A stretch of 64,000 bases of DNA from Actinomycetota bacterium (GTDB lineage: Bacteria; Actinomycetota; CALGFH01; JBBAAN01), in assembly GCA_041658225.1 (NCBI GenBank), contig JBBAAN010000002.1, positions 2,124 to 66,123 of the forward strand. Reading direction: 5' to 3'. The notes under the pieces are model-generated. The model made no database searches. It saw only the letters and a program-made list of their open reading frames with translations, and was not told the origin of the DNA. Shown in pieces: positions 31,006 through 59,283 of the stretch (the stretch's first letter is position 1; every line of letters begins with the position of its first letter). Both the position numbers and the translations under genes were made by a program.

Positions 31006-31110
31006 TCGCGCCTCGCGGATGTCGGTGGAATGGTGGCCGGAGGACACGCCCTGCGCGCTGCCGAAGGCATCGCCGGGGCGCATCACCGGCCCGGAGGCCT
31101 ATTCTTCTCC

Positions 31111-31138
31111 ACGAAAAAGGCCCGTGCAACCGGGCCTT
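31111..31138 (-). terminator. Putative intrinsic terminator between the pilMNO-associated operon and aroC.
   Basis: Minus-strand RNA AAGGCCCG-GUUGCA-CGGGCCUU followed by UUUCGU (8-bp stem, U5 run); 140 nt after the stop of the 31279-32091 gene. Confidence 0.45.
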
Positions 31139-31278
31139 CGTCGTCCGGCCACTCCGCCCCACTCGCCGCCCGGCCGGCAAGGCAACCCCTGGAAGACTTT
31201 GCGGCGCTTGGGTTCGCGCCCTCGCTTCCCCTTGCCGGCCCAAGCGAGATCGGCCTCGAAACGGCCGGATCAGCGCCG

Positions 31279-32091
31279 CTACTTGATGACTTCCTCGCCC
31301 TCGCACAACCGGAACCGGCTGTCGCCGTAGAGGAATGTGCCACATCGGTCGGACAACGACACGACCTTGAAGCTTTCCGCGAAGGTGTCGCCCGCCTTCA
31401 CTTTGTAGACGGTGCTTCCCACCTTCACCGACGCGTAGGTCGTCCCGCCCTGCGTGAACACATCCATCAGAGTCACCCGCTGTCCTACCTGGGAGCTCGC
31501 TTCGCTCGTTCGCCCCGGGGCGGGAGTTGAGGAAGTCGTGGTGGAAGTGGTCGCTCCCGGAGCGGGAGAGGACGCCGCGACCAGCAGCGGCCGGAAGGGG
31601 TCCCGACCCTCGAAGACCTCGAAGGTCTCCGGCACGCCGGTCTGTACGGCGCTGGGGCTGGCACTCGGCTTCGGCGACGCCACGACCCGGGCCCGGGTCG
31701 TGGCGGTCACGGCCGGCGCCGGCTTGGCCTCCTCGACCGGCTTGCTCCGCAAGACGAAGGACCACAACCCGGCCGCAGCAACCACAGCGCCCGCGAGGAC
31801 CAACGCGAGCAACAACGCTGTTCGGCCACGCGTCTCCTTGCCGCCACCCTCTCCCTCGAACGGACCACCCAGCGGAGGTTCCCCTGGCCCCCCGGGTTGT
31901 CCCGGAGTCGCGGGCATGACCGAAGGCTGCCCGGGAAAGCCCGAAGGCCCGTGCGGCGCGCCGGGAGCAGGTGGGGACCCGTAGCCGTACGGAGGAGCCG
32001 GGTACGTCGGCTGGCCGGGAGCACCGGGCGCGGCGCCCCCTGGGGAGCCTTGCTGCCCGTATGGCGGCACGAACGGCGGCTGCACCATCAC
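31279..32091 (-). CDS. Hypothetical bitopic membrane protein, last gene of the pilMNO cluster and a candidate PilP-like component. It has a Pro-rich N-terminus, one TM helix, an S/T/P linker and a small C-terminal beta domain.
   Basis: Position after pilO, where pilP normally sits. Sequence shows PPYG-type Pro-rich repeats, TM ALLLALVLAGAVVAAAGLW and C-terminal domain VTLMDVFTQGGTTYASVKVGSTVYKVKAGDTF. No confident family match from sequence alone. Confidence 0.45.
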   Translation of the reverse strand: MMVQPPFVPPYGQQGSPGGAAPGAPGQPTYPAPPYGYGSPPAPGAPHGPSGFPGQPSVMPATPGQPGGPGEPPLGGPFEGEGGGKETRGRTALLLALVLAGAVVAAAGLWSFVLRSKPVEEAKPAPAVTATTRARVVASPKPSASPSAVQTGVPETFEVFEGRDPFRPLLVAASSPAPGATTSTTTSSTPAPGRTSEASSQVGQRVTLMDVFTQGGTTYASVKVGSTVYKVKAGDTFAESFKVVSLSDRCGTFLYGDSRFRLCEGEEVIK

Positions 32092-32094
32092 TGC

Positions 32095-32751
32095 CTACCT
32101 TGCGCTCGGAGTTGGGGTCGGACTTGCGGTCGCGGTGGGAAGGACAACCCCGCCCGCCGGCGCGGGCTGGAAGCCCGGACCGTACCCGGTGGTGTAGATC
32201 TTCATGGACAGAGCGCTGGTCATCCGTGACATCCCGCCCGCCCCGGGAGCGCCCGGCGTGAGGCTGACCGAGATCACCTGGGTCGCGCGCTGCAGGCTCT
32301 CCAGACGGCTCAGGAAGTCCGACATCTGGAAGTAGCCTCCCTCGACGGCCAGAGCCACCTGGATCACATTCACTCCCCCAACACCCACTGCCTTCCCGCC
32401 GGCACTCTGCGCGGTCAGCGGAGAGGGCGCCCCTGGAGAGATCGAGTTCACGTCGACCCCGGACCTGGCGGAGATCTCGACGATCCGCCGGATAAAGCCA
32501 GGCAAATCTGGGGTGTCGGGAATCTTCTCGGAGAACTGCGCGATCTCGGCCTGGATTTCGGGTGCCCGGCGCTTGAGTTCCTCCAAACGCGCGATCTGAG
32601 CGCGCAGCCGGCTCTCCTCGCTCTGAGCTTCCTGCCTGGCCTGGTTCGCCTGGTCGATCTTGCCCGAGGTTGGCTTCCAGGAGGCCAGGTAGAACACGGC
32701 CACCAGCACCACGGCAAGCACGGCCGCCCCCGCCACGTAGGCGCGCTTCAT
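32095..32751 (-). CDS. pilO: Type IV pilus assembly protein PilO-like: bitopic, with a coiled coil.
   Basis: Single N-terminal TM, coiled-coil ARQEAQSEESRLRAQIARLEELKRR; position after pilN. Confidence 0.6.
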   Translation of the reverse strand: MKRAYVAGAAVLAVVLVAVFYLASWKPTSGKIDQANQARQEAQSEESRLRAQIARLEELKRRAPEIQAEIAQFSEKIPDTPDLPGFIRRIVEISARSGVDVNSISPGAPSPLTAQSAGGKAVGVGGVNVIQVALAVEGGYFQMSDFLSRLESLQRATQVISVSLTPGAPGAGGMSRMTSALSMKIYTTGYGPGFQPAPAGGVVLPTATASPTPTPSAR

Positions 32752-33398
32752 TTGGCGCCTCCTGAGGCAGTCGGCACCGCGTAGCGGCGGGTGAAGGCGG
32801 CCGGAGTCAGGTCAATGGTAGAGGAGAAGTTGGCCACCTTGCGTCCGGCCAGGTCGGCCTTGGTGGTGTTGGACAGGTAGGGGTTGGCGAACTGCTTTCC
32901 CTCCCCCATACGCACCAGCCACCCGGCCACCCCAAGATAGTCGAAGCTCACCCCGGAAAAGCTGAGAGTACCGATCGAGACGGCCTGTCCGGCCGGCAGT
33001 ACGGCAGTGGCCGAAACGGCGCCTGAGAAGCTGGTCAACCAGGTGTCCCCGGGGATGAGCATGCTGACATCTCGCAGGATAGTCGACCAGCGAACCTCGG
33101 CCTGGAGCGCTTGGGCCAGCATCGTCTTCTTCTGAGTCAACAACTGGTCGAGGCGCCCATACTCCTGGAGGCTGACTACCTTCGTCTGAAGCTCGCGGTT
33201 CGTGGCCTGCTGCTGCGCCAGGGCATCCTCGGCCGAGGAAAGCTGACCACGGTGGAACAGCGCCAGCGCCACCAGCACGACGATGAACCCCGCCAATCCC
33301 ACCACCAGGCCCGCCAGCATCCGCCGGGTGCGGCGCTTCTCCGCAATCTCGGGAGGCAGCAGGTTCACGCGGACCATGCCCCCGCCCAACTCGGTCAT
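32748..33398 (-). CDS. pilN: Type IV pilus assembly protein PilN.
   Basis: N-terminal VRVNLLPPEI (PilN INLLP motif) followed by TM and coiled coil; translationally coupled to pilM and pilO. Confidence 0.7.
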   Translation of the reverse strand: MTELGGGMVRVNLLPPEIAEKRRTRRMLAGLVVGLAGFIVVLVALALFHRGQLSSAEDALAQQQATNRELQTKVVSLQEYGRLDQLLTQKKTMLAQALQAEVRWSTILRDVSMLIPGDTWLTSFSGAVSATAVLPAGQAVSIGTLSFSGVSFDYLGVAGWLVRMGEGKQFANPYLSNTTKADLAGRKVANFSSTIDLTPAAFTRRYAVPTASGGAK

Positions 33399-34438
33399 CT
33401 CGACGCTCCCAAGGCCAGGCCGATCGGAACCGTCATCACCGGCTCAGCCCAGGGCAACTGCTCGGCCGGCATGTTGAGCTTCCCGACCTTGAGCGCCGCA
33501 AGCGGGTGCGCCGGCTCGACCGACAAACGCAACGCCGCCGAGAGTCGCTCGCGCAGCCCCGCGAGGTTCGCCCCTCCGCCGGAGACCACCGCGCGGCTCA
33601 GGGGAAGCGAGTCGACCTGGGCGCGGTAGTAGTCCAGGGATCCCCGGATCTCATCCACGAACGCCCCGACGGCACGGTCCACCACCGCCGCCGGACTGCC
33701 CGGCTCGACAGGCCCCAGGCCCATGCGCGCCTTGAGTCCCTCGGCGTCCTCCCAGCCCAGGTTCGTCTCCCGAACCAGCGCCTCAGTGATGTCGTCGCCG
33801 CCCATGATCAGGATGCGCACGAAGCGCGGAACTCCGGCCGCGTGAACGAGGATGTTGGTGACGCTCCCCCCAATGTCGATCAGGGCCTCGGCGCCGCCCA
33901 ATCCCAGCCCGCTTCCCCCGGTCACCGAGCGCAGCACCGCGAACGGGGTCAGGTCGACCATGATCGGCTTCAGCCCCGCTCCCGAGATCGTGTCTACCAA
34001 GCCACCTACCATGTCCTTTGACGCGGCCACGAGCAGGATGCGCAGCATGGCCTGGCCGGACTCCGAGGTGAAGCGGTCGATCGCCTGGTAGTCGAGAATC
34101 GCCTGCTCGACCGGGATCGGGATGTACTCCTGGACCTGCAGGGCCAGCGAGGCGCGGAACTCCTTGTCCTCCAGTTCCGGCAGGTCCACCTGGCGAACCA
34201 TCACGCGCTGGCTGGCCACGCCCAAGACAACCTGCTTGCCTCGAAAGCCGGACCGCTTCCAAAGCCTCCCCAGCGCCGCGCGCACGGCCCCGGCGTCCTG
34301 GATCTCTCCGTCCTTGACCGCCCCGCGCGCAAGGGGAACCTGCCCGAACGCCTCGAGGGTCGCGCCGCCGCGAACAAACGAGACCTGAGCGCCGCGCACG
34401 GCGCTGGTCCCCACGTCGAGCCCAATGATCCGGCTCAT
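33395..34438 (-). CDS. pilM: Type IV pilus assembly protein PilM, an actin-like ATPase fold.
   Basis: N-terminus MSRIIGLDVGTSAVRGAQV and overall FtsA/PilM-like architecture. Confidence 0.85.
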   Translation of the reverse strand: MSRIIGLDVGTSAVRGAQVSFVRGGATLEAFGQVPLARGAVKDGEIQDAGAVRAALGRLWKRSGFRGKQVVLGVASQRVMVRQVDLPELEDKEFRASLALQVQEYIPIPVEQAILDYQAIDRFTSESGQAMLRILLVAASKDMVGGLVDTISGAGLKPIMVDLTPFAVLRSVTGGSGLGLGGAEALIDIGGSVTNILVHAAGVPRFVRILIMGGDDITEALVRETNLGWEDAEGLKARMGLGPVEPGSPAAVVDRAVGAFVDEIRGSLDYYRAQVDSLPLSRAVVSGGGANLAGLRERLSAALRLSVEPAHPLAALKVGKLNMPAEQLPWAEPVMTVPIGLALGASR

Positions 34439-34439: not shown

Positions 34440-34685
34440 CTAGCCCCGCCCTTGTCCCTGGACGCGCACGAAACGGTCCGACAGATAGCGATCCACGTCC
34501 GCGGAACGAATGCGGTAGTTCTTACCGACCCGGATTGCTCCGAGGTGACCCGCCTTGATAAGCCGGTAGACCGTCATGTTGGAAACCCGCATGACGCCGG
34601 CCACCTCGTCGACCGTGAGAAGCCGGTCGTCCAGGTAGGTCGCTCTCTTGGTGCCCAAAGACGGCCCCCTTGTGTGGCAGCCCAA
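34440..34685 (-). CDS. Small excisionase/MerR-like helix-turn-helix DNA-binding protein; start codon uncertain (TTG).
   Basis: Motif LLTVDEVAGVMRVSNMTVYRLIKAGHLGAIRVGKNYRIRSADVDRYL typical of the excisionase-family HTH domain. Sits between pilD and pilM behind a consensus-like promoter. Confidence 0.55.
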   Translation of the reverse strand: MGCHTRGPSLGTKRATYLDDRLLTVDEVAGVMRVSNMTVYRLIKAGHLGAIRVGKNYRIRSADVDRYLSDRFVRVQGQGRG

Positions 34686-34722: not shown

Positions 34723-34886
34723 CAGCAATAACAACGTCACTCATCGGCAACAGAGATTGACGGCTTGAGAACTACACGCCTGTAATTATCCGCAGCAACA
34801 TGCGTCCAGGAACCGGACGCACAGCAGCCGTCTGTCCCCCGCTTCTCCACGCGAACGAGCCGTCGGGAGCCTCACCCCTCCCGAGA

Positions 34887-35726
34887 CTACCGCCCGAGCA
34901 AGTGGGAGTAGGCCTCCGCCAAAGGACTTCCGGCGAAGAGCCCCACCAGTCCCCCGAGCGCTAGGAACGGACCGAACGGGATCATGTCCTTGCGGCTGCG
35001 CTTGCCCGACCCGATCAGCACCAGGCCGCTCACCCCTCCGAGAAGGAAGCCGGCAAAGAGTCCCACCACCAGGCTGCGCCAACCGAGGAAACCGAGGTAG
35101 AGCCCCAAGACGGCGGCGAGTTTGACGTCACCCATGCCCATCCCGCCCGGCCGGATGACCGCCAGCAACAGGAAGCCTCCCCCGGCGACCAGACCCGCAA
35201 GCACCGCTCCACCGTAGGCGCCCCAACCCGCCTCTCCAGCCAGCACGGGAATGACAAGCAGCACCAACCCCGCAATCGCCGTCGGGTAGGTCAACCGATT
35301 CGGGAGGATTCGGTGTCCGGCGTCGATCAAGGCCAGGGCCAGCAGCGCCCATGCGAACCAGAGATAGGCCGGTAGCGCCCAGGAAGCGCCGACCTTGGCT
35401 GCCACACCGGCGAACAGAACCCCGGTAGCCAACTCGATCAGCGGGTAGCGGATCGAGATCGGCGCGCGGCAGTCGCGGCAGCGCCCGCGAAGCAGCAGGT
35501 AGCTCAGGACGGGGATGTTGTCCCGCGCGCGGATCGGCGCGCCGCAGCAAGGGCAATGGGATCCGGGCCTGGTCAGGGATTCCTTGCGTGGCAAGCGATA
35601 CACGGCCACGTTCATGAAAGAGCCGAAGATCAGACCGTAGAGCCCCGATACGACTACGAGGAAGACCTCCAAGAAGACCCCCGAGCACACCAGCCGCCGA
35701 AGGGAGACGGCCCGCTCAAGCCGCAC
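34887..35726 (-). CDS. pilD: Prepilin peptidase (A24 family).
   Basis: Zinc-binding CPCCGAP...CRDCRAP cysteines, catalytic D-containing polytopic membrane domain. Confidence 0.85.
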   Translation of the reverse strand: MRLERAVSLRRLVCSGVFLEVFLVVVSGLYGLIFGSFMNVAVYRLPRKESLTRPGSHCPCCGAPIRARDNIPVLSYLLLRGRCRDCRAPISIRYPLIELATGVLFAGVAAKVGASWALPAYLWFAWALLALALIDAGHRILPNRLTYPTAIAGLVLLVIPVLAGEAGWGAYGGAVLAGLVAGGGFLLLAVIRPGGMGMGDVKLAAVLGLYLGFLGWRSLVVGLFAGFLLGGVSGLVLIGSGKRSRKDMIPFGPFLALGGLVGLFAGSPLAEAYSHLLGR

Positions 35727-35779: not shown

Positions 35780-37000
35780 TCAGCCGGTCTTCTTGACGTT
35801 GTCGATCTCGGCCTCCGCGGTGTTGCCGGCCAGGTCATAGGCCACGACCTTGTAGTCGTAGTAGACGTTCTTCACGGCCGTCAGGTCCACGAAGGTTGTC
35901 GCCGTCGCGGGCATGGGCGATCCGATCGACAGCCCCCAAGAGCTCGTCCCATGGGCCCGGCGGAATACCGTGTAGCCGCCGAGGTAGGCGTCGGTCGAGG
36001 CGCTCCAGGTCAGGGTGCCCGTCGAGTGAGACCACCCCAGGTTGCCGGGCACGGTGGGGGCCTGGCGGTCCAGGATGATCGTCGCGAAAGCCACACCGCT
36101 GACGTTACCCGCGCCGTCGCGGGCTCGAACCCAAATACTGTTCGGCCCGTCGGGACCCAGGAGAGAGACCATCTGGGCCTCGGTGTACGTCTGCCACGGA
36201 CCCCAGTTGATCCCGTCGTGGGAGAACTGGATCTCCGCGAAGGCGCACAGGTCCACCACGAGCACATGAGCGGTGAGGTCAACAGTGGTCGTGTAGCCAA
36301 CGGAGATCGCGAAGTGGATCGACACCAGCGGAGGGGTGACGTCTCCCATACACTGCGACACGCTCGGTGTGGGGGTTGGCGTCGGTGTGGGGGTTGGCGT
36401 CGGTGACGTGGGCGAGGACGTCGGGGTGGGCGAGCCGTGGACGTTCACCACGCCCGGGGTGAAGACCGAGCTGAGCTTGGACATCCGTTCGGTGCCCTCG
36501 ATACCAGGCCGCACGACTACCGCAACCACCGTCACCCGCTTGGCCGCCATCGCATCCGCGTCGCCCCCGGGCGTCCCGGGCGACGAGCTGGCCCAGGTCA
36601 CGTACTGGTAGATGTCGATGGTCGAGTTGGCCGACACGACCGTGACCTTGTGTTCGATCTGCCCGTCCACAATCAGCGGTTCGGCTCCGCCTCCGGCGTC
36701 GTAGGAGGGAACCGGCGCGTCCGAGACGTCGTAGTCGGGGGACTTCGGGTCGGTACTGTGTGTGGGCAGCGACGTCAGGCCGATGGCCGAGTAGGGCAGG
36801 TTGCGGGTGAACTCGAGATGGCTCTGAGCCGTGGCCGAAGCGGCCGTGCGTTGCCGGGACATGCCGAGCAGCCGCAGCCCCAGCCCCAGGGAGCCCGCGA
36901 CCGCAAGCACGCCGACCGCCAGGATGAACCCGGCGATCGTCACCTCGAGGATCGTCAGGCCCTCATCCCCGCGCGCCAAGCGCTTGAAGCGAATCAGCAT
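35780..37000 (-). CDS. Prepilin-type protein with a class III signal peptide, a PT-repeat linker and a C-terminal fibronectin type III-like domain. Copy 1.
   Basis: Leader MLIRFKRLARGDEG|LTILEV (Glu at +5); TPTPTPTPTPTP linker; FN3-like WSASTDAYLGGYTVFRR...YDYKVVAYDLAGN. Confidence 0.65.
   Translation of the reverse strand: MLIRFKRLARGDEGLTILEVTIAGFILAVGVLAVAGSLGLGLRLLGMSRQRTAASATAQSHLEFTRNLPYSAIGLTSLPTHSTDPKSPDYDVSDAPVPSYDAGGGAEPLIVDGQIEHKVTVVSANSTIDIYQYVTWASSSPGTPGGDADAMAAKRVTVVAVVVRPGIEGTERMSKLSSVFTPGVVNVHGSPTPTSSPTSPTPTPTPTPTPTPSVSQCMGDVTPPLVSIHFAISVGYTTTVDLTAHVLVVDLCAFAEIQFSHDGINWGPWQTYTEAQMVSLLGPDGPNSIWVRARDGAGNVSGVAFATIILDRQAPTVPGNLGWSHSTGTLTWSASTDAYLGGYTVFRRAHGTSSWGLSIGSPMPATATTFVDLTAVKNVYYDYKVVAYDLAGNTAEAEIDNVKKTG
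36365..36430. repeat. Short tandem repeat (18-bp unit cggtgtgggggttggcgt x2 plus degenerate copies) encoding the PT-repeat linker of the FN3 pilin-like protein.
   Basis: Direct reading of sequence; translates on minus strand to TPTPTPTPTPTP. Confidence 0.7.
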
Positions 37001-37050
37001 CTCGCGTCACCCCCGTTCATCACCATTCAGTCTCGACAGGTGCTCTCCCC

Positions 37051-38529
37051 TTAGGGCTTGAGCTCCTCCCACGAGTACCTCACCAGGCTCGTATCCCCGA
37101 AGCCGACGATTCTCTCCACCCGGGAGTCGTAGATGACCTGGAAGCCGTTCTTGACGTCCATGTTGCCCGCGTACAGGGCCCCATTCCCATGGTTGTCGCT
37201 GTTCTTGAATGCCATCTTGCCGGTCGTGTAGAAGATGGTCGCCACGTCCGAAGTGACCTGGACCTTGTTCTTCCCCCAGATCGAGCAGTCGCCACCCTGG
37301 TCGCTGCAACTCATCTCCTGCCCGGGCGGCGCGTACAGGCTCACAATCACCAGAAGCGGCCTGATGACGCCGGGCTGTGTAGAGGCCACAGTGAGGTTGT
37401 CGCCGTCAAAAGCGATGGGCGCGTTGGTCACGACCATCGTGTCCCCGGCGATCGTCCAGTTGCCCGGAAGCGTCAGAACGGTGCTCTGCGAAGCGTTTGA
37501 CTGCCAGACGGCGTAGTTGCCCGAGAACGCTGTGGCCGGGGCCTTGGGCAACCCGTAGTCGTCGGCCTGGCCGGCATTGAAGCGAGCCACCGCGTCGGCG
37601 CTGCCACCGGTGTACGGCGGCGCGGGCGGGGACCCGTAGGTGTGCACCCCCATGCCCGGCTGGTACAGCACGCTCGGGTCAAATTCCGGCAATGTCAGAC
37701 GCTCAGGCTGGGTCGGGCACGGGTCGTGCTTGTTCTTGATCAGTAGCCCGCCCACGAGGGAGCTGATGTTGCCCGCGGCCGAGGCGTTCCCGGTGATCGA
37801 ACCCCCAATGATGTCCGAGAACCCCGACGCAGGCGGACAGACCGCGTTGCCCGCCGTCGCGTTCCCTCCTACGACCGCGCCGTTGGAGAGAAGGATGTTG
37901 CCCCCGCCGGAGGCGTCCCCGCCGGCCCACGCGTCGCGCGAGATCCCGACGTTGTTGCCCGCGGAGAGGTTCCCCTTGTAGACCACAACGGACCCGACCA
38001 TCGAGCAGTTGTTCGCCAGCGTCATGTCATTGACCGAGTAGACATCCCCGGTCACCCCGCAGTTCGTGCTGCCGCCTATGTCGAGGGTGGTGCTGGAGAA
38101 CATCGCATACTTGAAGGATGAGGGCGGAGCCAGGATCTCCTTGATCTCCCGGCTCACCAAGCCGTAGGCGGTCTTGCTCCTGCCGCTTGCCACGATCGTC
38201 TTCCACCCGAGGTGGGGAGAGTCGTGAGTGATGGCCACGTCGTAGGTACCGCCCGGAACCGCGATCCCTGTGGCCCCGTCCCAGGACGGGTTCTGGTTGA
38301 GCTGGTAGACCGCCTCGTTGAGCCCGGCCTCCGACACCGCCAGGGCCTGGTTCCAGTGCACCTGCCTGACTGTGGAGGTGTGCGAGTGGGTGCCGGTCGC
38401 CAGGATCGTGGCCACGAGCATGGTCAGCACGAACAGAACGAGCATGGCCGTGATCACGGCCATTCCCCGCTCATCCTCATGTGCCCGCCGTGCCGGCGCG
38501 AGAAGCCTGAATCTGGCCATATGCCTCAC
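37051..38529 (-). CDS. PilX_N-domain pilus-associated protein with a beta-helix-like G/N-rich repeat region. Copy 1.
   Basis: N-terminus ERGMAVITAMLVLFVLTMLVATILA matches PilX N-terminal domain architecture. The central region has GGNATAGNAV-type repeats. Confidence 0.55.
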   Translation of the reverse strand: MRHMARFRLLAPARRAHEDERGMAVITAMLVLFVLTMLVATILATGTHSHTSTVRQVHWNQALAVSEAGLNEAVYQLNQNPSWDGATGIAVPGGTYDVAITHDSPHLGWKTIVASGRSKTAYGLVSREIKEILAPPSSFKYAMFSSTTLDIGGSTNCGVTGDVYSVNDMTLANNCSMVGSVVVYKGNLSAGNNVGISRDAWAGGDASGGGNILLSNGAVVGGNATAGNAVCPPASGFSDIIGGSITGNASAAGNISSLVGGLLIKNKHDPCPTQPERLTLPEFDPSVLYQPGMGVHTYGSPPAPPYTGGSADAVARFNAGQADDYGLPKAPATAFSGNYAVWQSNASQSTVLTLPGNWTIAGDTMVVTNAPIAFDGDNLTVASTQPGVIRPLLVIVSLYAPPGQEMSCSDQGGDCSIWGKNKVQVTSDVATIFYTTGKMAFKNSDNHGNGALYAGNMDVKNGFQVIYDSRVERIVGFGDTSLVRYSWEELKP

Positions 38530-41329: not shown

Positions 41330-41369
41330 GAGCTCGAGAACGGTGAAACCGCCCTCGGCCTCGCGGAGT

Positions 41370-47953: not shown

Positions 47954-48116
47954 GTATCGGCACGAACTGAGAGCCAATTGAGCACCCGGGTTCCAGCCCG
48001 CCCTGCCCAGCACCACGTTCGTGCTATGTTTCGCTCGGGCCGGCTGCACCGCCAGACGCGCGTGGTCCAGCTGGCAACGGCCCGAATCCAAGATACCCTT
48101 GCCGCCGAGGCGCTGA

Positions 48117-51664: not shown

Positions 51665-51696
51665 CAAGAAAACGGCGGGCCCTTACGGGCCCGCCG
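51665..51696 (-). terminator. Intrinsic terminator downstream of pilA copy 2.
   Basis: Minus-strand RNA CGGCGGGCCC-GUAA-GGGCCCGCCG (10-bp GC stem) followed by UUUUCUU; 20 nt after pilA2 stop. Confidence 0.7.
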
Positions 51697-52182: not shown

Positions 52183-52387
52183 AATGTTTGTTCACCTCCT
52201 TTCCCGATCAGAGTCAACACGTACACCTGCGACACGTTTCTTGCGGGAGCCGGACCGAGTGGCCCGACAACCCGCCAGACGCGCCATCGCCCAGTTTCCT
52301 CCTTCGGGCAGCGCAGGTACATGACTTCCTGAATCCGACTATCGGTCCCAGAGCGCAATACCTTTAGCCCAATTTCACCCGAAGTGA

Positions 52388-53629
52388 CTAGGCATCTCGG
52401 GCCGTTTCCCACGCCGGGTCTGTCGGTCTGGCGCTCGCCCACAGTGCCCCCGCCGGCGATCCCAGCAGCACCGCCAGCAGCGCGGGCAGTGCCGGGTAGT
52501 GCCAGTCGAAGTCGAAGCCGGCGTGCGCGAGCAGCACTCCGGCGCCCACCACAAGCCCCGACTCCATTCCCGGGAACCCCTTCCGTACCAGGCGCCACGC
52601 AACGAGCGCGCCGGCAGCCAGCACTCCCACAGCAGCCAAAGCCAGAGGGGTCCCCCCTTCGGCCGCGGCCTGCAGATACTCGTTGTGGGCATACCGGCTC
52701 TTGATCGGCCCGTGCTGGTAGGGCGCGGCTGCCTTGCCGTAGAGGCCCAGTCCGACTCCCAAGACGGGGTGATCGGCGAACACCTCTCCTGCCGCGCGCC
52801 ACCAGTCCAACCGGCCGAAAGCACTGGAGCCGGCGTCGTTGCCGCGCACCGCCAGACCCTGCGGACGGTCGGAGGGCGTCGACTTCTTGGCCAGTGCGAG
52901 CGCCCCCAGTCCGAGCAGGCCCACCAGCGCGACGACCAGCAGTTTGCGCGCCCACCCGCGCCCGATGGCCACCGCGGCAGCCACTCCGCCAACCACCGCC
53001 AGAGCCAGGCTGGCCCTCGACCCGGACAGGTAGGTCGCCGCGAGTAGTGCGCCCGCGGTCACACCGGCAAGCACCCGGCCGCGACCCGGCTGGGAAACCG
53101 CCCATGCTGTCCAGAGCACCACGCCCACCGCAACGAAGATCCCAAACTGGTTGCGCCAGTAGAAGTGACCGGTCATGAACCCGCCTCCGCCGCCACCTCC
53201 CCCACCCCACCAGGTGTACCAGGCCCAAGCGGCCTCCCAGACGATCGCGAGGCCCGCGACCGCGGCTAACAGCCGCGCCCTGCCTCGCCCAGCCTCCACG
53301 AGCGCGGCGACCCCCAGACCGGGAAGCGCCGCGAACACCCTCCACGAAAGCAGGGCCTCCTCTCCCCTTCCCGGGATGAGCGCAAGGCTGGCAGCCAGCG
53401 CTGCCGCCCCCCAGAGCAGCACCGCGAACCGGCCTGCCCGCGAGCGCCACGCTGGGATCAGCGACACGAGGCCAGCCAGAGCAGCCAGGATTGCCGCACA
53501 GGTCAGTGTCCAGCCGCCGCGCCCACCCCAATCGGAAGGCAGCACGAAGAGCGCGTAGGCGAAAGCCACCCACCGAAGACCCGTAGCCACGGGCTGGGCC
53601 GCCGAGAGCCCGGAAGCGCTTGGGGTCAC
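52388..53629 (-). CDS. Wzy_C / O-antigen ligase family polytopic membrane protein. Candidate pilin O-oligosaccharyltransferase (TfpO/PglL-like).
   Basis: About 12 TM helices; periplasmic-loop motif RYAHNEYLQAAAEGG matches the HNxYLxxxxExG signature of the O-antigen ligase family. The gene is translationally coupled (ATGA) to pilC and precedes pilA. Confidence 0.65.
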   Translation of the reverse strand: MTPSASGLSAAQPVATGLRWVAFAYALFVLPSDWGGRGGWTLTCAAILAALAGLVSLIPAWRSRAGRFAVLLWGAAALAASLALIPGRGEEALLSWRVFAALPGLGVAALVEAGRGRARLLAAVAGLAIVWEAAWAWYTWWGGGGGGGGGFMTGHFYWRNQFGIFVAVGVVLWTAWAVSQPGRGRVLAGVTAGALLAATYLSGSRASLALAVVGGVAAAVAIGRGWARKLLVVALVGLLGLGALALAKKSTPSDRPQGLAVRGNDAGSSAFGRLDWWRAAGEVFADHPVLGVGLGLYGKAAAPYQHGPIKSRYAHNEYLQAAAEGGTPLALAAVGVLAAGALVAWRLVRKGFPGMESGLVVGAGVLLAHAGFDFDWHYPALPALLAVLLGSPAGALWASARPTDPAWETARDA

Positions 53630-54843
53630 TGAATCAGCTTGATGATGTTGAACATCGGCAGGTACAGGGAAACGACCATCCCTCCCACCGCGCCGCCCAT
53701 GACCGCGATGAGCAACGGCTCGATCAACGACGTGAGGCTATCAACGGCCGCCGAGACCTCAGCGTCGTAGAAGTCGGCGATCTTGGACAGCATCGTGTCC
53801 AGGGCCCCCGTCTCCTCTCCCACCGCCATCATCTGCACGACCATCGGCGGGAACACCGGGTGCGCCTCGAGCGGCTTGGACAGACTCTCGCCGTGGCGCA
53901 CCGCCTCCTGGACGTCCTTGACCGCCTTGGCCACCACACCGTTGCCCACCGTATCGGCCACGATGTCCAGGCCCTGCAGGATCGGGACGCCGGACTTCAG
54001 CAGCGTGGAGAGGGTGCGCGAGAACCGCGACAGCGCGGTCTTCTGGAACAGCGAGCCGAAGACCGGCATCTTGAGCTTCATGACGTCCAGGGCGTACCGG
54101 CCTTTGGGTGTAGCCTTCCACCGGCGAAGCGCGAAACCGGTCCCGATGGCACCGCCGAGGACCAGCCACCAGAACTTCTTGAAGATGTCGCTCATCCCGA
54201 CGAGCACCCGCGTGGGCAGCGGCAACGTGCCGCCCAGGGTCGAGTAGAGGCTCTGGAACATCGGCACGACGAAGAGCAGCATCGCCGACAGGATCATGAT
54301 CACCATGCCGAACACGGCGACCGGGTAGGTCATCGCCGACTTGATCTTGCCCCGAAGTTCCACTTCCTTCTCGATGGTGTCGGCCAGACGCACCAAGACC
54401 TGGTCGAGGAAACCGCCGATTTCCCCCGCCTTGACCATCGCCACGTAGAGGTTGCTGAAGGCCTTGGGGTGCTTGCGCATCGCCTCCGAGAGGCTGGTTC
54501 CCTTCTCCACGTCGGTGCGCACCAGGCGCACGATCTCCGCCAGTTTGGGGTTCTCGGTCTGGTCCCCCAGGATCGAAAGGGCCCTCAGCAACGACAGGCC
54601 CGAGTTGATCATCGTGGCGAACTGACGCGAGAAGACCGCCACGTCCTTGAGCTTAATCCGGTTGCGGCCCGGAAGGTGCAGTTCCCTCTTGGCCGCGCCG
54701 GCCTTGACCGCCTCGATCGTCAGCGGCGCATATCCCAGCTCGCGAAGACGCAGGGCAACCGCGGACTGGGAGTCCGCCTCTACCGTGCCCGAGACCAGCT
54801 TGCCCTGCCGGTCACGCACCTTGTAGGCGAATGTCTCCGCCAT
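53626..54843 (-). CDS. pilC: Type IV pilus platform protein PilC (GspF family).
   Basis: Duplicated GspF domains; 405 aa; synteny pilB-pilT-pilC. Confidence 0.9.
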   Translation of the reverse strand: MAETFAYKVRDRQGKLVSGTVEADSQSAVALRLRELGYAPLTIEAVKAGAAKRELHLPGRNRIKLKDVAVFSRQFATMINSGLSLLRALSILGDQTENPKLAEIVRLVRTDVEKGTSLSEAMRKHPKAFSNLYVAMVKAGEIGGFLDQVLVRLADTIEKEVELRGKIKSAMTYPVAVFGMVIMILSAMLLFVVPMFQSLYSTLGGTLPLPTRVLVGMSDIFKKFWWLVLGGAIGTGFALRRWKATPKGRYALDVMKLKMPVFGSLFQKTALSRFSRTLSTLLKSGVPILQGLDIVADTVGNGVVAKAVKDVQEAVRHGESLSKPLEAHPVFPPMVVQMMAVGEETGALDTMLSKIADFYDAEVSAAVDSLTSLIEPLLIAVMGGAVGGMVVSLYLPMFNIIKLIQ

Positions 54844-54846: not shown

Positions 54847-56481
54847 CTAGCCTCCCCTTCGCCCTGGGGCGGTCGCCCCACCGAGGAGCCGGCTCAGATC
54901 CTCCATGTGGTGACAGCGCTCGAAAGCTATCTCTCGGGTGACCTTGCCCGCGCGAACCAGCGTCGCCAGGTGCTGGTCCATGGTCTGCATCCCGTACTGG
55001 GCCCCCGCCTGGATGGAGGAGTAGATCTGGTGGGTCTTGCCCTCGCGGATCAGGTTGCGCACTGCCGGGGTGGCCACCAGCACCTCGACCGCCACCACGC
55101 GTGAGAGGACGTCGGTGGCCGGCAGCAACTGCTGGGAAACGATGCCCTGCAGCGAGGCCGCCAACTGCACCCGCACCTGCTGCTGTTGATGCGGCGGGAA
55201 GACGTCGATGACTCGGTCGATAGACTGCGGGGCGTCCTGGGTGTGCAGGGTCGCGAACACCAGGTGGCCGGTCTCGGCGGCGGTCAGGGCCACGGAGATC
55301 GTCTCCAGGTCGCGCATTTCCCCGACCAGGATCACGTCGGGGTCCTGGCGCAGCACGTGCTTCAGGGCGTTGGCAAAGGTCTTGGTATCGGCCCCGAGTT
55401 CCCGCTGGTTCACCATCGCCCTGTCGTGCGCGTGCATGAACTCGATGGGGTCCTCGATCGTCATGATGTGCACCGCACGCTCGTGGTTGACCACGTCGAT
55501 CACCGAGGCAAGCGTGGTGGACTTGCCCGAGCCGGTCGGCCCGGTGACGAGCACGAAGCCGCGCTGCATGTGCGCGAAGCTTCGAAGGATCGGCGGCAAC
55601 CCGAGCGCCTCGGGAGACTTGATCTCCATGGGGATCGCCCGGAACGCCGCCCCGATGGAATCGCGCTGGAAGTAGACGTTGACTCGGAAGCGCGACACGC
55701 CCGGCAGGCTGTAGGCGCAGTCAAGCTCCAACTCGTTCTCAAGGACCTCTCGCTGCTTCTGGGAGAGGATCGAGTAGACCACCTTGCGCAGCTCTCCCGG
55801 GTCCAGCGGTGGATGGGGATCCAGCCGGATGAGGTCTCCGTGCACTCGCACCACCGGGGGCGATCCGGCGGTGAAGTGCAGGTCCGACGCGCCCATCTCG
55901 ACCATCTCCTCGAGCAACTCGGCAAGATAGGTCGCCCGTGCGGTCTCATGGTCACTGCGCTTCATCCAGGCCGAGCGAGTCTGGCCGGGAACGGCCTCGG
56001 GCCGAGCCGGGGGACTCGGGGGAGAGGCCATCTCCACCGCGGCGGCGGACTCCACGGGGCCAAACGGCACGTCGATACGCGCGGGCATCACTATCTCCTC
56101 CACTACCTCCGGCGCCGCATCGGATACCACGAACACCTCGGACACTCCTGAGTCCGGCTCGTCCAGCGAGATCATGCTCACGGGATCCGGTTCACCGGAC
56201 ACCTCACCGGGCTCCGCGTCCTCAGCCTGCGCTTGCACCCCAACCTCGACTTCGGGCAACAGCACGCTCTCCTCCCCTTCCGCGACCTCAGCCGCCGGCT
56301 CCTCGCCCGCTTCGGGCTCAGCCGGAGCCTGCGGTTCAGGGAGCGCTTCAGGCTCGGCCGGAGCTTCAGGCTCAACCGGAGCCTGCGGTTCGTCGGCAAC
56401 AGGCTCAGGCGGCGCAGCCTCGGGCGCCGGGCCCTCCGGCCGGAACACCTCGCCCACGATCCACGGTTCCCGCTTCTTCAC
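54847..56481 (-). CDS. pilT: Twitching-motility retraction ATPase PilT with an N-terminal acidic Pro/Glu/Ala-rich extension of about 170 aa. Start assigned to GTG at 56481 after a GGAGG site; an alternative internal start is ATG 55965.
   Basis: C-terminal 372 aa are a canonical PilT: Walker A GPTGSGKST, Asp box, AIRNLIRE motif. The upstream in-frame region has no stop and the best SD (GGGAGGtggacGTG) precedes codon V52. Confidence 0.75.
   Translation of the reverse strand: MKKREPWIVGEVFRPEGPAPEAAPPEPVADEPQAPVEPEAPAEPEALPEPQAPAEPEAGEEPAAEVAEGEESVLLPEVEVGVQAQAEDAEPGEVSGEPDPVSMISLDEPDSGVSEVFVVSDAAPEVVEEIVMPARIDVPFGPVESAAAVEMASPPSPPARPEAVPGQTRSAWMKRSDHETARATYLAELLEEMVEMGASDLHFTAGSPPVVRVHGDLIRLDPHPPLDPGELRKVVYSILSQKQREVLENELELDCAYSLPGVSRFRVNVYFQRDSIGAAFRAIPMEIKSPEALGLPPILRSFAHMQRGFVLVTGPTGSGKSTTLASVIDVVNHERAVHIMTIEDPIEFMHAHDRAMVNQRELGADTKTFANALKHVLRQDPDVILVGEMRDLETISVALTAAETGHLVFATLHTQDAPQSIDRVIDVFPPHQQQQVRVQLAASLQGIVSQQLLPATDVLSRVVAVEVLVATPAVRNLIREGKTHQIYSSIQAGAQYGMQTMDQHLATLVRAGKVTREIAFERCHHMEDLSRLLGGATAPGRRGG
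56311..56400. repeat. Degenerate direct repeats (23-bp core ggctca[g/a]ccggagcctgcggttc at 56315 and 56369, partial copy at 56351) within the PilT N-terminal extension coding region.
   Basis: Seen directly; encodes EPQAPAEPEA-type repeats. Confidence 0.6.
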
Positions 56482-56569
56482 GTCCACCTCCCCACGCACC
56501 CGACAATACTCCGCCGAGGACGTCAAAGTGCCTATTCGGACCCCGGCCTCAAGGCCTTGAGCCTTCTCA

Positions 56570-58255
56570 CTAGATGACGACGCGCAAGATCTCCTCCAGG
56601 GAGGTCGACCCCCGGGCCACCTTGCCGAGCCCATCCTCCCTCAGCGTCGTCATTCCCTGCTCACGAGCCATCCTGGCAATCTCATCCGCTGAGCGTCGTT
56701 CCACGGTCAGTCGCTCGATGCCCTCACTCATGCGCATGATCTCGTGCAGACCCATCCGCCCGCGGTAGCCCGTGCGTCCACAGTATGCGCAGCCACCTGC
56801 CCGGTACAGCGTCGGCACCGGCTCGTCCTGCTTCCAGGGAAACCGCGCCTCGATGAGGCTGTCGGGGGTCGGCTCGTACACCTCCTTGCACTTCTCACAC
56901 AGGCGCCGGGCCAGCCGTTGGGCCAGCACACAGTCCAGCGCGGAGGTGACCAGGAACGGCTCGATGCCCATCTCGATGAGGCGCGTAATCGCCGAGGGAG
57001 CGTCGTTGGTGTGCAACGTCGACAGCACCAGGTGCCCGGTCAGGGATGCCTCGATGGCGATCATCGCCGTTTCCTGGTCTCGGATCTCGCCGATCAGCAC
57101 CACGTCCGGGTCCGATCGCAGGATCGAGCGCAGGGCCGAGGCAAACGTCAGGCCCGCCTTCGTGTTGGTCTGCACCTGGTTGATCCCCGGCAGCCGGTAC
57201 TCGATGGGATCCTCCACCGAGATGATGTTGCGGTCCGGGGAGTTGAGGATGTTCAGGGTCGCATACAGCGTGGTCGACTTGCCCGAGCCGGTGGGCCCGG
57301 TGACCAGGATCATTCCGTAGGGCTTCTTGAAGGAAACCTCGTAGCGGGCGAAGGCCTCCATCGAGAAACCGAGATCCTGGAGTTTGAGCAGCACCGAGGA
57401 CTTGTCCAGGATTCGCAGCACGACCTTCTCGCCGAACGCCGTGGGCAGGGTGGCCACGCGGAGGTCGATGCCCTTGCCGCCCACCACCAGGCTGATGCGC
57501 CCGTCTTGCGGGATGCGCCGCTCGGCGATGTTGATATCGGCCATGATCTTCAGCCGAGAGATCATGCCGGCCTGGATGCGCTTGGAGGGGCGCATCACCT
57601 CATGGAGAACGCCGTCGATGCGGTAGCGCACGCGCAGGTCGTGCTCTTGAGGCTCGATGTGGATGTCCGAGGCGCGCTCGGTCACGGCCTGGGAGATCAG
57701 CAGGTTGACCAGCCTGACGATCGGGGCTTCCTCGACGACCTCCCGCAACTTGACGATGCTATCGAGATCCTCGGATTCGTCGGTCGCCTTGGCGGCCGCG
57801 ATGTCCCCCGCCGAGGTGTCCATCCGCTTGAAGCGCTCGATGGCCTCGAGCACGTCCGATCGGGTGGCAACCACGACTTTGAGGTCCATCCCCGTGACCG
57901 TGCGGATGTCGTCCAGCGCAACCACGTTGGTCGGGTCACTCATCGCCACGACCAACCGCCCGTCGTCGGTGGCGATGGGAAGAGCCAGGTAGCGGCGAGC
58001 CAGCGCTTCACTGACGAGGGAGGCGGCGTTGGCGTCGATCTGGAACTCGCCAAGTTCGACGAACGACAGGCCCGTCTGTTTGGCCAGGGCGGCCACCAGG
58101 TCGGACTCGCTGACGTAGTTCAGATCGATCAGGACGCGACCCAGCGACTTGCCCAGCCGCTCCTGCTCCGCAAACGCATGCTCGAGCTTGTCCTCGCTGA
58201 GACAGCCCTCCTCGAGGAGGACGTCCGCCAGGCGCTGAGTCTTCCTGCTCGTCAT
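56570..58255 (-). CDS. pilB: Type IV pilus assembly ATPase PilB (GspE family).
   Basis: N1/N2 domains, Walker A GPTGSGKST, tetracysteine CEKCK...CAYCGRTG motif; 561 aa. Confidence 0.9.
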   Translation of the reverse strand: MTSRKTQRLADVLLEEGCLSEDKLEHAFAEQERLGKSLGRVLIDLNYVSESDLVAALAKQTGLSFVELGEFQIDANAASLVSEALARRYLALPIATDDGRLVVAMSDPTNVVALDDIRTVTGMDLKVVVATRSDVLEAIERFKRMDTSAGDIAAAKATDESEDLDSIVKLREVVEEAPIVRLVNLLISQAVTERASDIHIEPQEHDLRVRYRIDGVLHEVMRPSKRIQAGMISRLKIMADINIAERRIPQDGRISLVVGGKGIDLRVATLPTAFGEKVVLRILDKSSVLLKLQDLGFSMEAFARYEVSFKKPYGMILVTGPTGSGKSTTLYATLNILNSPDRNIISVEDPIEYRLPGINQVQTNTKAGLTFASALRSILRSDPDVVLIGEIRDQETAMIAIEASLTGHLVLSTLHTNDAPSAITRLIEMGIEPFLVTSALDCVLAQRLARRLCEKCKEVYEPTPDSLIEARFPWKQDEPVPTLYRAGGCAYCGRTGYRGRMGLHEIMRMSEGIERLTVERRSADEIARMAREQGMTTLREDGLGKVARGSTSLEEILRVVI

Positions 58256-58392
58256 GCCTTCCTCATGTTCCCAGATCCGTCGGGCTGGTGCCGCCTATCT
58301 CACTCACCGGCCGCTCCGAAGCCCGTCTGCACCCCCAAATGCCGCGCGTACGCCAACCCCCGACCGCCGGCGATCGGCGGCCGCTTCGTCGT

Positions 58393-59283
58393 CTATGGGA
58401 TTCGGCCCTCACGCTCATGAGCTTGAGCCGCGAGCGCTCGCAGGGCGGCTGCGCTCATCACCTCGAGAGACGGGGTCGAGCCGGTCCACAGCTCCAACGA
58501 CAGGCCAGCCTGTGCCAGCAGCAACCCCAAGCCGTTGTGGGTGACGGCCCCATGTGAGCGCGCCTCAGCAAGAAACGGCGTCTGGGCGGGTGAGTAGATG
58601 AGGTCGACGGCCATCTGCCCGGAGCCCAGCCGGCAGGCGTCCTCCGGCAACCGCTCGCCGCGCATCCCCAAGGGGGTCGCGTTCACGACGAGATCCGATC
58701 CCGAGACCTCCGACAGGTCGGCGTTCCAGCGAAGGAAGCCGGCCTCTGTAGCGCCGCATTCCCGGGCCAGGCCCACAACCGGCTCGGCCCTATCCGGCGA
58801 CCGGGCAACCACCAGCACCCGGCCCGCGCCCATGCGGCCCAGAGCCAGGGCGCATGCGCGGGCAGCGCCGCCCGAGCCCAGGATCGCCACCGTGCGCCCG
58901 GCCGCGTCGAACCCCGCCCCTTCCAGGAACCGCCTGAAGCCCGGAGCGTCGGTGTTGTGGCCCACGAAGCGGCCCCGGCCATCGGGCACGAGGGTGTTGA
59001 CCGCGCCGAGCATCTCGGCTTCCGGCGCCAGGGCGCCGCAGTGCGCCGGCGCCAGTTCCTTCAATGGCATGGTCAGGTTGGCCCCACCCGAGCCCAGCGC
59101 CTCGAGTCCGCGCATCGCCTGGCCCAGGTCTGCCGGCCGGACCGGGAACGCCACGTACACCCAGTCAAGCCCGAGCGCTTCCAGCGCCGCGTTGTGGATC
59201 GCCGGAGAAAGACTGTGCTCCACGGGCCAACCCAGCACCGCAACCACGCGCGTGCGCGCCGAGAGCCGCTCCGTGCCACTCAT
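58393..59283 (-). CDS. aroE: Shikimate dehydrogenase.
   Basis: Motifs VLGWPVEHSLSPAIHNAA and ILGSGGAARA; start at MSGTERLSARTRVVAVLG. Confidence 0.85.
   Translation of the reverse strand: MSGTERLSARTRVVAVLGWPVEHSLSPAIHNAALEALGLDWVYVAFPVRPADLGQAMRGLEALGSGGANLTMPLKELAPAHCGALAPEAEMLGAVNTLVPDGRGRFVGHNTDAPGFRRFLEGAGFDAAGRTVAILGSGGAARACALALGRMGAGRVLVVARSPDRAEPVVGLARECGATEAGFLRWNADLSEVSGSDLVVNATPLGMRGERLPEDACRLGSGQMAVDLIYSPAQTPFLAEARSHGAVTHNGLGLLLAQAGLSLELWTGSTPSLEVMSAAALRALAAQAHEREGRIP

Follow-up and report, generated by a model that had tools for sequence, protein, structure and literature searches.

Between the shikimate-pathway genes aroC and aroE of an uncultured member of the Actinomycetota lies a 27-kb interval that encodes a type IV pilus of the IVa kind (T4aP) together with a set of glycan-assembly genes. 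The interval is contained in a 64,000-nucleotide stretch of contig JBBAAN010000002.1 (GenBank assembly GCA_041658225.1), which was analysed as a whole and is called the window here; positions are counted from its first letter. We propose, with a probability of about 0.6, that the interval is the native T4aP locus of a monoderm actinobacterium, that it is under WhiG-type control, and that its pilins are O-glycosylated en bloc. The candidate for the transfer is a protein with a Wzy_C domain, encoded between pilC and the first pilin gene.

Results

Pfam and NCBIfam scans covered every sizeable open reading frame (ORF) from 25 to 64 kb of the window, in which nearly all genes lie on the minus strand. 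One border of the interval is aroC (29833-31086), with nusB, efp, pepP, aroQ, aroB and aroK on the same flank; the other is aroE (58393-59394), with mltG/YceG, ruvX and alaS. In transcriptional order the interval holds pilB, pilT, pilC, the Wzy_C gene, pilA1, pilA2, a divergent pair consisting of a tandem family 2 glycosyltransferase (GT2-GT2) and a methyltransferase, an initiating transferase, a fusion of a family 4 glycosyltransferase with a flippase (GT4-Wzx), a GT2, six minor-pilin genes, pilD, a helix-turn-helix (HTH) gene, pilM, pilN, pilO and a gene for a PilP-like protein of 212 aa. For comparison, 80 loci anchored on PilD were taken with 10-kb flanks from one-genome-per-species collections, and all window proteins were mapped onto them by tblastn; individual loci are cited by L numbers. 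Coordinates given below are on the minus strand unless stated otherwise.

The extension ATPase PilB (56570..58255) matches Pfam T2SSE (E=8e-143) and MshEN (E=2.5e-25), and its best NCBIfam family is the type IV-A PilB, TIGR02538, at 653 bits just below the equivalog cut-off of 676. The retraction ATPase PilT (54847..56481; presumed start GTG 56481, with GGAGG 5 nt upstream) exceeds the cut-off of the PilT/PilU family TIGR01420 over residues 186-526 (488 bits against 319). The platform protein PilC (53626..54843; T2SSF twice, E=1.3e-72; best NCBIfam family PilC, 454 bits) is a single protein with two T2SSF domains and not a split TadB/TadC pair, and the pilins PilA1 and PilA2, at 155-171 aa, are not Flp-sized. 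Further along lie the prepilin peptidase gene pilD (34887..35672; A24_N_bact E=2.6e-35, Peptidase_A24 E=4e-15; protein P0001, NCBI MFA5785526.1), an excisionase/MerR-type HTH_17 gene of 72 aa (34440..34658; HTH_17 E=3.8e-14; TIGR01764 66.7 against a cut-off of 28.8) that is kept at the same position in L014, L062 and L063, and the alignment-subcomplex genes pilM, pilN and pilO (32095..34438; PilM_2 E=2.4e-45, PilN E=1.5e-6, PilO E=1.9e-10). The last three each exceed their Pfam cut-off, with TIGR01175 at 195 against 133. No Secretin domain was found by Pfam in any ORF of the interval, and E. coli HofQ gave a best E of 0.24 in a tblastn search of the window; since the host is a monoderm, this absence is expected and is not counted against membership of the T4aP.

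Because a PilT-family ATPase above the curated cut-off occurs together with PilM, PilN and PilO, we assign the locus to the T4aP and not to the Tad or Com pili, and regard this assignment as almost certain. An earlier note, made from the bare sequence, had reached the same gene inventory, the same T4aP call and the same lack of pilQ; every gene class that it listed was recovered in place. Its duplicated minor pilins with PilX-like proteins correspond to two diverged triplets, and its PilP-like call is borne out by fold searches, as described below.

Two features of the ATPases deserve separate mention. Residues 8-60 of PilB (58090-58234) match the MshE-related cyclic di-GMP (c-di-GMP) motif NF053729 at 56.9 bits against a cut-off of 38, which suggests that pilus extension may be under direct c-di-GMP control, besides any control by WhiG/RsiG. 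PilT has an N-terminal extension of ~180 aa (55965-56481), rich in Glu, Pro, Ala and Val and of coding-like base composition, that is probably disordered. PilT genes called at 467-526 aa with Ala/Pro-rich extensions are also found in L087, L089 and L090. In many Micrococcales loci pilB and the PilT core are separated by 500-880 bp; Solirubrobacterales and L063 lack such a gap.

Canonical prepilin signals (G↓F/L-T-x-x-E, the arrow marking the cleavage site) are present on six ORFs. Among the pilin genes proper, pilA1 (51715..52182; N_methyl E=1.4e-8; signal G↓FTLIE) is followed by an intrinsic terminator (51668..51695), read from the sequence as a GC-rich hairpin, ggcgggcccgtaagggcccgcc, and then ttttctt. 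With a promoter of its own in front and this strong hairpin and T-run behind, pilA1 would be transcribed separately, and it probably encodes the major pilin. The second pilin, PilA2 (50854..51369; N_methyl E=1.2e-8), is 50% identical to PilA1 and ends in SWSRS; its terminal Ser is a candidate glycosylation site.

Minor-pilin set 1 (39309..42656; weak N-terminal NCBIfam matches to PilV, E=3e-6, and GspK, E=9e-5) consists of A1, which is PilV-like and modular, B1, which is GspJ/PilW-like, and C1, which is GspK/PilX-like, with prepilin signals on A1 and B1. Set 2 (35780..39086) has the order B2, C2, A2, with B2 matching N_methyl and GspJ (E=4e-8), and its proteins are 76% (B), 70% (C) and 59% (A) identical to those of set 1. 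A recent head-to-tail tandem duplication was considered and rejected, as the gene orders (A-B-C, then B-C-A) and a DNA identity of 75-77% do not fit it. The B1 gene (40847-41395) retains an intact leader, REAEGG↓FTVLELM, in a region that overlaps the end of A1. From the preceding stop codon to the cleavage site there is no ATG, GTG or TTG, so that the gene either starts at a rare codon (ATT, ATC or CTG) or is decaying. The A-type minor pilins (35780-37000 and 41370-42656; 406 and 428 aa) have a PilV-like head, a Pro/Thr/Ser linker and C-terminal immunoglobulin-like and FN3-like modules, and are reminiscent of the modular, adhesive pilins known from Streptococcus sanguinis. Their linkers, like those of PilO and the PilP-like protein, are plausible targets of O-glycosylation.

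The PilP-like protein (31279..31917) occupies the pilP slot of the pilMNOPQ-aro order and has one transmembrane helix, an FEVF..RDPFRPL motif, a Ser/Thr/Pro linker and a C-terminal HR beta-domain. Its 44 homologues, all unannotated in public databases, each have the helix, the motif, the linker and a C-terminal domain of ~65 aa. The PilP sequence model stays below threshold (E=1.3e-3), and the C-terminal domain, modelled at a predicted local distance difference test score (pLDDT) of ~97, has PilP, GspC-HR or GspB as its top 12 Foldseek matches, so that the modelled fold supports a PilP-like identity. A PilP/GspC-type HR domain is thus retained without a secretin, and its anchor is a transmembrane helix, not a lipid. 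In diderms the HR domain binds the secretin, and the protein raises the question of which partner the domain has in a cell without an outer membrane.

The glycan genes comprise, on the plus strand, the tandem GT2-GT2 glycosyltransferase (48117..49979; Glycos_transf_2 E=1.8e-35, two stretches) and a methyltransferase dependent on S-adenosylmethionine (49972..50712; Methyltransf_23 E=8e-12), and, on the minus strand, an initiating polyprenyl-phosphate hexose-1-phosphate transferase of WbaP/WcaJ type (46452..47924; Bac_transf E=2.2e-63, CoA_binding_3; TIGR03025 392 bits against a cut-off of 296; start GTG), the GT4-Wzx fusion and a GT2 (42653..43708; Glycos_transf_2 E=2.8e-19). The fusion (43705..46449; presumed start ATG, 2 nt after the transferase stop) joins, in one ORF, a Cps2T/DUF1972-like GT4 (Cps2T E=2.6e-25; Glyco_trans_1_4, Glyco_transf_4 and DUF1972 on residues 61-420) to a Wzx/MOP flippase (Polysacc_synt, Polysacc_synt_3 and MatE on residues 437-850). 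The predicted supply of a lipid-linked glycan, namely initiating transferase, glycosyltransferases and flippase, is encoded within 10 kb, and the module measures ~11 kb with the Wzy_C ligase gene. The ORFs of 31-58 kb contain no chain-length regulator (polysaccharide co-polymerase/Wzz, CpsCD) or tyrosine kinase and no LytR-CpsA-Psr (LCP) ligase domain. A further ORF of 157 aa without a family (47921-48394) overlaps the divergent promoter region and is regarded as spurious.

The Wzy_C gene (52388..53629; Pfam Wzy_C E=2e-18) overlaps the pilC stop with its start and ends 205 bp before pilA1. Its product, a candidate pilin O-oligosaccharyltransferase (O-OTase), has 413 aa and about ten hydrophobic segments, with a large loop (residues 252-324) that holds R273 and H315. 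A single-sequence search of the PDB sequences found no match. The family profile matched the O-antigen ligase WaaL (7TPG) at E=5e-18, the Ser-Arg, Arg-Leu and Ala-His-Asn motifs falling in register, and the oligosaccharyltransferase 9RMK at E=9e-5. The AlphaFold model (pLDDT 85.7, predicted template-modelling score 0.88) had WaaL as its only significant fold match in the PDB (template-modelling score 0.6). Among 25 homologues R205, R273, H315, H369, D373 and D375 are invariant, and H315 falls on the AHN motif of WaaL in the alignment. O-OTases depend on the corresponding His (PMC9829042).

A word-indexed homology search had returned only 15 weak matches to the Wzy_C protein; the pilus-linked clade emerged from an exhaustive HMMER search of 1.84 billion representative proteins, in which 247 reach E<1e-10 and the best-scoring 20 are 33-41% identical; the protein is thus almost an orphan. 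The six best homologues with readable genomic context all adjoin pilus genes. The orders are pilin-Wzy_C with pilT nearby (L082), pilB-pilC-minor pilins-pilin-Wzy_C (L086), aroE-...-Wzy_C-pilB-pilT-pilC (L087/L088 and L090), sugar-nucleotide genes and five glycosyltransferases followed by Wzy_C-pilB-pilT-pilC-pilA-pilA (L089), and a methyltransferase and four GT4 genes followed by Wzy_C-pilB (L091); glycosyltransferase sets thus lie directly upstream of Wzy_C in two of the six. A more distant homologue (L084, E=4e-10) is not linked to a pilus. This genomic linkage of the best homologues points to a pilus-dedicated clade. The suggestion of a glycan system coupled to the pilus, made in the earlier note, is upheld.

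Some neighbours of these homologues are of interest in their own right. In L089 and L091 the gene immediately before Wzy_C encodes a stand-alone DUF1972 GT4. Between aroE and Wzy_C-pilB, the metagenome loci L087 (4787-7236) and L090 (2985-5787) carry genes for a Roadblock/LC7 protein, a PatA_N protein and a small Ras-like GTPase. This set, at the head of the pilus operon, is reminiscent of a polarity module of the MglA/MglB type or of part of an actinobacterial conservon.

Promoters of the flagellar/sigma-28/WhiG type were sought as TAAA-N16-GCCGATAA with at most two mismatches, with first-order Markov simulations of the window as background; the criterion of PMC8325347 is TAAA-N15/16-GCCGATAA, deviating at two positions at most and located no more than 200 bp from a start codon. 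The window contains eight matches, all with a 16-nt spacer, against 1.8 expected (simulation maximum six). Five are intergenic, on the coding strand and at the heads of units: pilA1 (52339..52366; TAAA-N16-ACCGATAG), pilA2 (51369..51396, abutting the start; TAAC-N16-TCCGATAA), the initiating-transferase operon (47954..47981; TCAA-N16-GCCGATAC, the -10 ending 30 nt upstream of the GTG), minor-pilin set 1 (42647..42674; TAAA-N16-GACGATAC) and HTH-pilMNOP (34741..34768; TCAA-N16-GCCGATGA), all but the first with two mismatches. The pilA1 promoter is the only exact match to TAAA-N14-17-CCGATA in the window, where 0.01 would be expected. The three other consensus matches, within coding sequence or antisense, were treated as chance, and a third CCGATAA, upstream of B2 (39194-39200), lacks an acceptable -35 and was left out of the promoter count. 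At pilA2 the -10 (TCCGATAA) overlaps the first ATG and transcription would start near the second (51360), so the mRNA may be leaderless. A generic scan for sigma-70 promoters and terminators gave nothing above background.

Relatives show the same type of promoter. Six Solirubrobacterales loci have TAAAG-N16-GCCGATA at the same position between pilD and pilM, and on both strands of all fetched loci (~1.5 Mb), 8 of the 11 exact matches fall in Solirubrobacterales pilus clusters, six between pilD and pilM and two just upstream of pilA. WhiG controls the T4P in Rubrobacter (PMC8325347), and we infer that it is the sigma factor of the present locus as well. As the same promoter type heads the glycan operon, glycan genes and pilins would be co-expressed.

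The position of the locus among the shikimate genes recurs. Seen whole or as far as the flanks reach, the order aroE-pilB-pilT-pilC-pilA-(minor pilins)-pilD-pilM-N-O-aroC-aroK-aroB-aroQ-pepP-efp is found in about ten Solirubrobacterales and Thermoleophilaceae, in one Acidimicrobiales metagenome-assembled genome (MAG), in Kineococcus, Sanguibacter and Actinotalea, and in several further Actinomycetota, so that aro-embedded loci span three classes (Thermoleophilia, Acidimicrobiia and Actinomycetes). In 22 of the 80 loci aroC, aroK and aroB lie directly downstream of pilD, and of pilM-N-O where these are present; aroE lies directly upstream of pilB in L006, L019, L023, L036 and L065, and just upstream of pilT in L003 and L030, which have no separate match to pilB. 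Beyond the phylum, the Firmicute Thermosyntropha (L067) has pilB-T-C-A-D-M and then aroQ-pepP-efp, and the annotated record of E. coli K-12 has hofM-N-O-P-Q-aroK-aroB. The same cluster occurs in Micromonosporaceae and Microbacteriaceae without aro neighbours within 10 kb; the Actinoplanes loci (L004, L009, L012 and L039) have no aro genes in that range and no Wzy_C.

Two arrangements in the collection differ from this order. In L064 a lone pilD lies between aroE and aroC (alaS-ruvX-mltG-aroE-pilD-aroC-aroK-aroB...aroQ-pepP-efp), the state that the earlier note ascribed to mycobacteria, and this fits the idea that such a peptidase is a relic. The locus is labelled 'uncultured Burkholderiales', a label that looks doubtful, and has a GC content of 0.40, which places the lone-peptidase state outside the high-GC Actinomycetota. 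A second cluster type, in L018, L028, L038 and L057 (Amycolatopsis, Luedemannella and a Mycobacteriales MAG), has pilD and then an inverted pilC-pilB-pilT-pilA, with PilB 43-44% identical, no pilM beside pilD and no aro neighbours.

Composition was compared by means of a codon index built from the flanking genes, which themselves range from 0.64 to 0.78. The genes pilB, pilT, pilC and pilM lie within this range (0.70-0.76), with a GC content at third codon positions (GC3) of 0.85-0.91. Along the window GC varies between 0.63 and 0.72; the flanks stand at 0.68-0.70, and the interval is slightly lower, with 0.63-0.66 at 37-43 kb and 48-52 kb. This dip is limited to the pilin and glycan genes, and in the pilin genes it is largely a matter of first-codon-position composition: GC3 is 0.84-0.88 in five of the six minor-pilin genes (A1, 0.78) and 0.81 in both pilA. 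For all six glycan genes the index (0.58-0.63) is lower than for any flank gene, and their GC3 is 0.77-0.81, a pattern that fits a later acquisition.

None of the 80 loci has an in-cluster homologue of Wzy_C, the initiating transferase, GT4-Wzx, GT2-GT2 or the methyltransferase (tblastn, and a Wzy_C-clade profile for Wzy_C), and the close relative L063 spans ~13 kb from aroE to aroC with one pilA and no glycan genes. Since the glycan module is missing there and its codon index is below that of the flanks, we treat it as an addition; the module with Wzy_C, the second pilA and the second minor-pilin triplet are lineage-specific additions to the ancestral locus.

The PilD and Wzy_C proteins are identical to MFA5785526.1 and MFA5785540.1 of an NCBI "Actinomycetota bacterium" MAG, and two contig records, one of 75,663 and one of 109,827 bp, carry the same proteins. 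The nearest PilD homologues are 55-60% identical and the housekeeping proteins at most 59-65% identical to those of species representatives, which places the host in a poorly sampled lineage. In the aroC-side flank there are also two fused transporter ORFs of unusual length, one of 1280 aa with two ABC_membrane and two ABC_tran regions (21527-25369) and one of 1053 aa with two branched-chain permease domains and an ABC ATPase (11624-14785).

Discussion

Viewed purely as a pilus locus, the interval is unremarkable, one more member at an ancestral site. The recurrent aro-embedded order, the hof linkage of E. coli and the flank-like codon usage together lead us to regard the pilus genes as, very probably, the ancestral occupants of the site between aroC and aroE, which they would have held since before the actinobacterial classes split. 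The earlier note had preferred an island inserted into the aro cluster and had raised the ancestral alternative for checking; the comparison with relatives favours that alternative. An island would mean that the whole 27 kb, pilus and glycosylation genes alike, was acquired horizontally and broke up a once contiguous aroC...aroE block. The lower GC of the interval and the organisms with only pilD between aroE and aroC, as in L064, speak for such an event, but the dip touches only pilin and glycan genes, the order is shared by three actinobacterial classes and in part by L067 and E. coli, and the Pfam survey showed no integrase, tRNA or flanking repeat. In the GC and codon comparison with the flanks that the note had called for, the core pil genes use the codons of their flanks and the glycan genes have a lower index. 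For the core locus, insertion is already contradicted. We consider an island of the full 27 kb very improbable. An assembly chimera, which the note had named as a possible refutation, is unlikely because two contig records share the proteins and the gene order recurs in many genomes. Equally hard to credit is a decaying or mis-assembled remnant that makes no pili. The missing canonical start codon of B1 and the origin of the data from a metagenome assembly alone would suit it, but the core genes are all intact, full-length and overlapping in operon fashion, their family matches are high-scoring, promoters and terminator are sensibly placed, and both contig records carry the same proteins.

What the analysis shows directly is which genes are present and how they are ordered, their codon usage, promoter motifs and folds, and the linkage of the Wzy_C clade to pili; a pilin as acceptor and en bloc transfer are what we infer. 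The following sequence of events is proposed. Going by homology, PilD would cleave the six prepilins, PilB, with its c-di-GMP motif, would polymerise pilins on PilC, and PilT would depolymerise them, retracting the fibre; PilM, PilN and PilO would form the alignment complex with the membrane-anchored PilP-like protein, and no secretin would be needed. The sigma-28/WhiG-type promoters at five unit heads would organise transcription. For the glycan, the WbaP/WcaJ-type transferase would start an undecaprenyl-diphosphate-linked sugar, the Cps2T-like GT4 and three GT2 domains would extend it and the methyltransferase modify it, and the Wzx domain fused to the GT4 would flip it outward. On the outer side of the membrane the WaaL-fold Wzy_C protein would then transfer it en bloc to Ser or Thr of a pilin, before the pilin enters the fibre. 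That the Wzy_C module glycosylates pilins we judge slightly better than an even bet.

The chief competitor to pilin glycosylation is a module that makes a Wzx/Wzy-dependent surface polysaccharide or wall glycopolymer, with the Wzy_C protein as polymerase or as ligase to a non-pilin acceptor; the polymer might cooperate with the pilus, like exopolysaccharide in Myxococcus gliding or hormogonium polysaccharide in cyanobacteria. The parts are those of a classic Wzx/Wzy system (an exopolysaccharide-type initiating transferase above the TIGR03025 cut-off, a flippase, several glycosyltransferases and Wzy_C), there are weak matches to hormogonium polysaccharide pseudopilins and glycosyltransferases, and Pfam Wzy_C spans polymerases and ligases. 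The interval, however, lacks the chain-length regulator, tyrosine kinase and LytR-CpsA-Psr ligase noted above, the invariant His-Asn motif and WaaL-like Arg pair suit a ligase better, the Wzy_C gene is translationally coupled to pilC and close to pilA1, and its closest homologues stand beside pilB or a pilin even where polysaccharide genes are not nearby (L082, L086, L087 and L090). We therefore rate this explanation as rather unlikely.

Several points nevertheless weigh against pilin glycosylation and the reading built on it. The pilins beside the Wzy_C homologues share no C-terminal Ser/Thr sequon (they end in N, K, T or P), which would suit a polysaccharide system, and PilA1 ends in Trp. 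The resemblance to a characterised O-OTase, 9RMK, is weak and weaker than that to WaaL, and fold and motifs do not fully separate polymerase from ligase. Low expression, rather than acquisition, could explain why the glycan genes are less well adapted in codon usage, the promoter calls are consensus matches only, the window has no whiG gene, and the ancestral state is argued by parsimony from the loci sampled rather than from a reconciled phylogeny. The organism, of which neither pili nor glycopeptides have been seen, is known from metagenome assemblies alone.

What is new is a clade of ligases with the WaaL fold that is dedicated to the pilus loci of monoderms, here with its own glycan genes and shared promoters. 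A subset of uncultured lineages has recruited such a ligase into the pilus operon, sometimes together with glycan genes. We give even odds to the fuller claim that the Wzy_C protein and its pilus-linked homologues form an undescribed family of T4P-dedicated O-OTases of monoderm Actinomycetota, acting en bloc on a lipid-linked glycan encoded in the locus and sharing WhiG-type control with the pilins. If true, this would be the first pilin-type O-OTase system in a monoderm and would extend pilin O-glycosylation of the TfpO/PglL kind to Gram-positive cells. Known O-OTase classes differ in the glycans they accept, so the family might also provide a new glycoengineering tool. Phage evasion could be approached through it as well, since in Pseudomonas the glycans on pilins block phages that are specific for the pilus. 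An ancient site bounded by aro genes would further account for the orphan prepilin peptidase found at the same site in reduced genomes, and the shikimate-gene borders are a simple landmark for finding such pili in new genomes.

Several known systems invite comparison. To our knowledge, work on the T4aP of Actinomycetota is confined to a couple of genera; the zoospore pili of Actinoplanes missouriensis were reportedly described by Kimura et al. in 2019 (cited in PMC12871210). T4aP in the phylum have been surveyed (PMC6668835), and those of Rubrobacter have been studied (PMC8325347). The clusters of Rubrobacter radiotolerans (PMC8325347) and A. missouriensis resemble the present one in being monoderm T4aP loci with pilB, pilT, pilC, pilA, pilD and pilMNO, without a secretin and with sigma-28/WhiG-type promoters inside the cluster. 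A link to c-di-GMP is likewise shared, through WhiG-RsiG there and through the MshEN motif on PilB here. As far as their descriptions are accessible, they mention no in-cluster Wzy_C ligase or glycan module.

On aro/pilus synteny in Gram-positives a full-text literature search gave nothing relevant. A familiar parallel is the proteobacterial linkage pilMNOPQ-aroK-aroB, known from Pseudomonas aeruginosa and present in E. coli as hofMNOPQ-aroK-aroB. In both settings alignment-complex genes are followed by shikimate genes in the same orientation, and the PilP-like gene sits where pilP does. Here, by contrast, the secretin slot is empty, aroC stands between pilP and aroK, and pilB, pilT, pilC, pilA and pilD belong to the same block, which is bounded by aroE.

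Pilin O-OTases have so far been described in Gram-negatives, as Wzy_C proteins of 420-470 aa encoded beside the pilin and without PglL_A and Wzy_C_2 domains (PMC9829042, PMC12645811). Like TfpO/PilO of P. aeruginosa 1244 and Acinetobacter and TfpM of Moraxellaceae, the protein described here belongs to the Wzy_C membrane proteins of ~410-470 aa encoded next to a pilin gene, with the catalytic His conserved, the two additional domains lacking and a glycan predicted to be built on undecaprenyl phosphate and flipped (PMC9829042, PMC12645811). The known enzymes, however, come exclusively from Gram-negative Proteobacteria and rely on O-antigen or capsule units that are synthesised elsewhere, whereas the host here is a monoderm with a dedicated glycan set in the pilus locus and the gene upstream of pilA; no detectable sequence similarity to them was found outside the domain in common, and the C-terminal Ser/Thr rule is not clearly followed. 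Closer in cell type are WsaB of Geobacillus stearothermophilus and WsfB of Paenibacillus alvei, predicted Wzy_C transferases that glycosylate S-layer proteins in Gram-positive Firmicutes (PMC2943079). These, too, are predicted O-OTases that act on the outer side of the membrane, and their genes accompany those for an initiating transferase, glycosyltransferases and a methyltransferase; they differ in their S-layer acceptor, their phylum and the lack of linkage to type IV pilus genes. By structure the best counterpart is WaaL of Cupriavidus metallidurans (7TPG), the best profile match and only significant fold match, with the Arg, Arg and His-Asn residues aligned. The acceptor of WaaL, lipid A-core, is missing in a monoderm actinobacterium, so that another acceptor is needed, and given the pilus linkage of the clade a pilin would be the most economical one.

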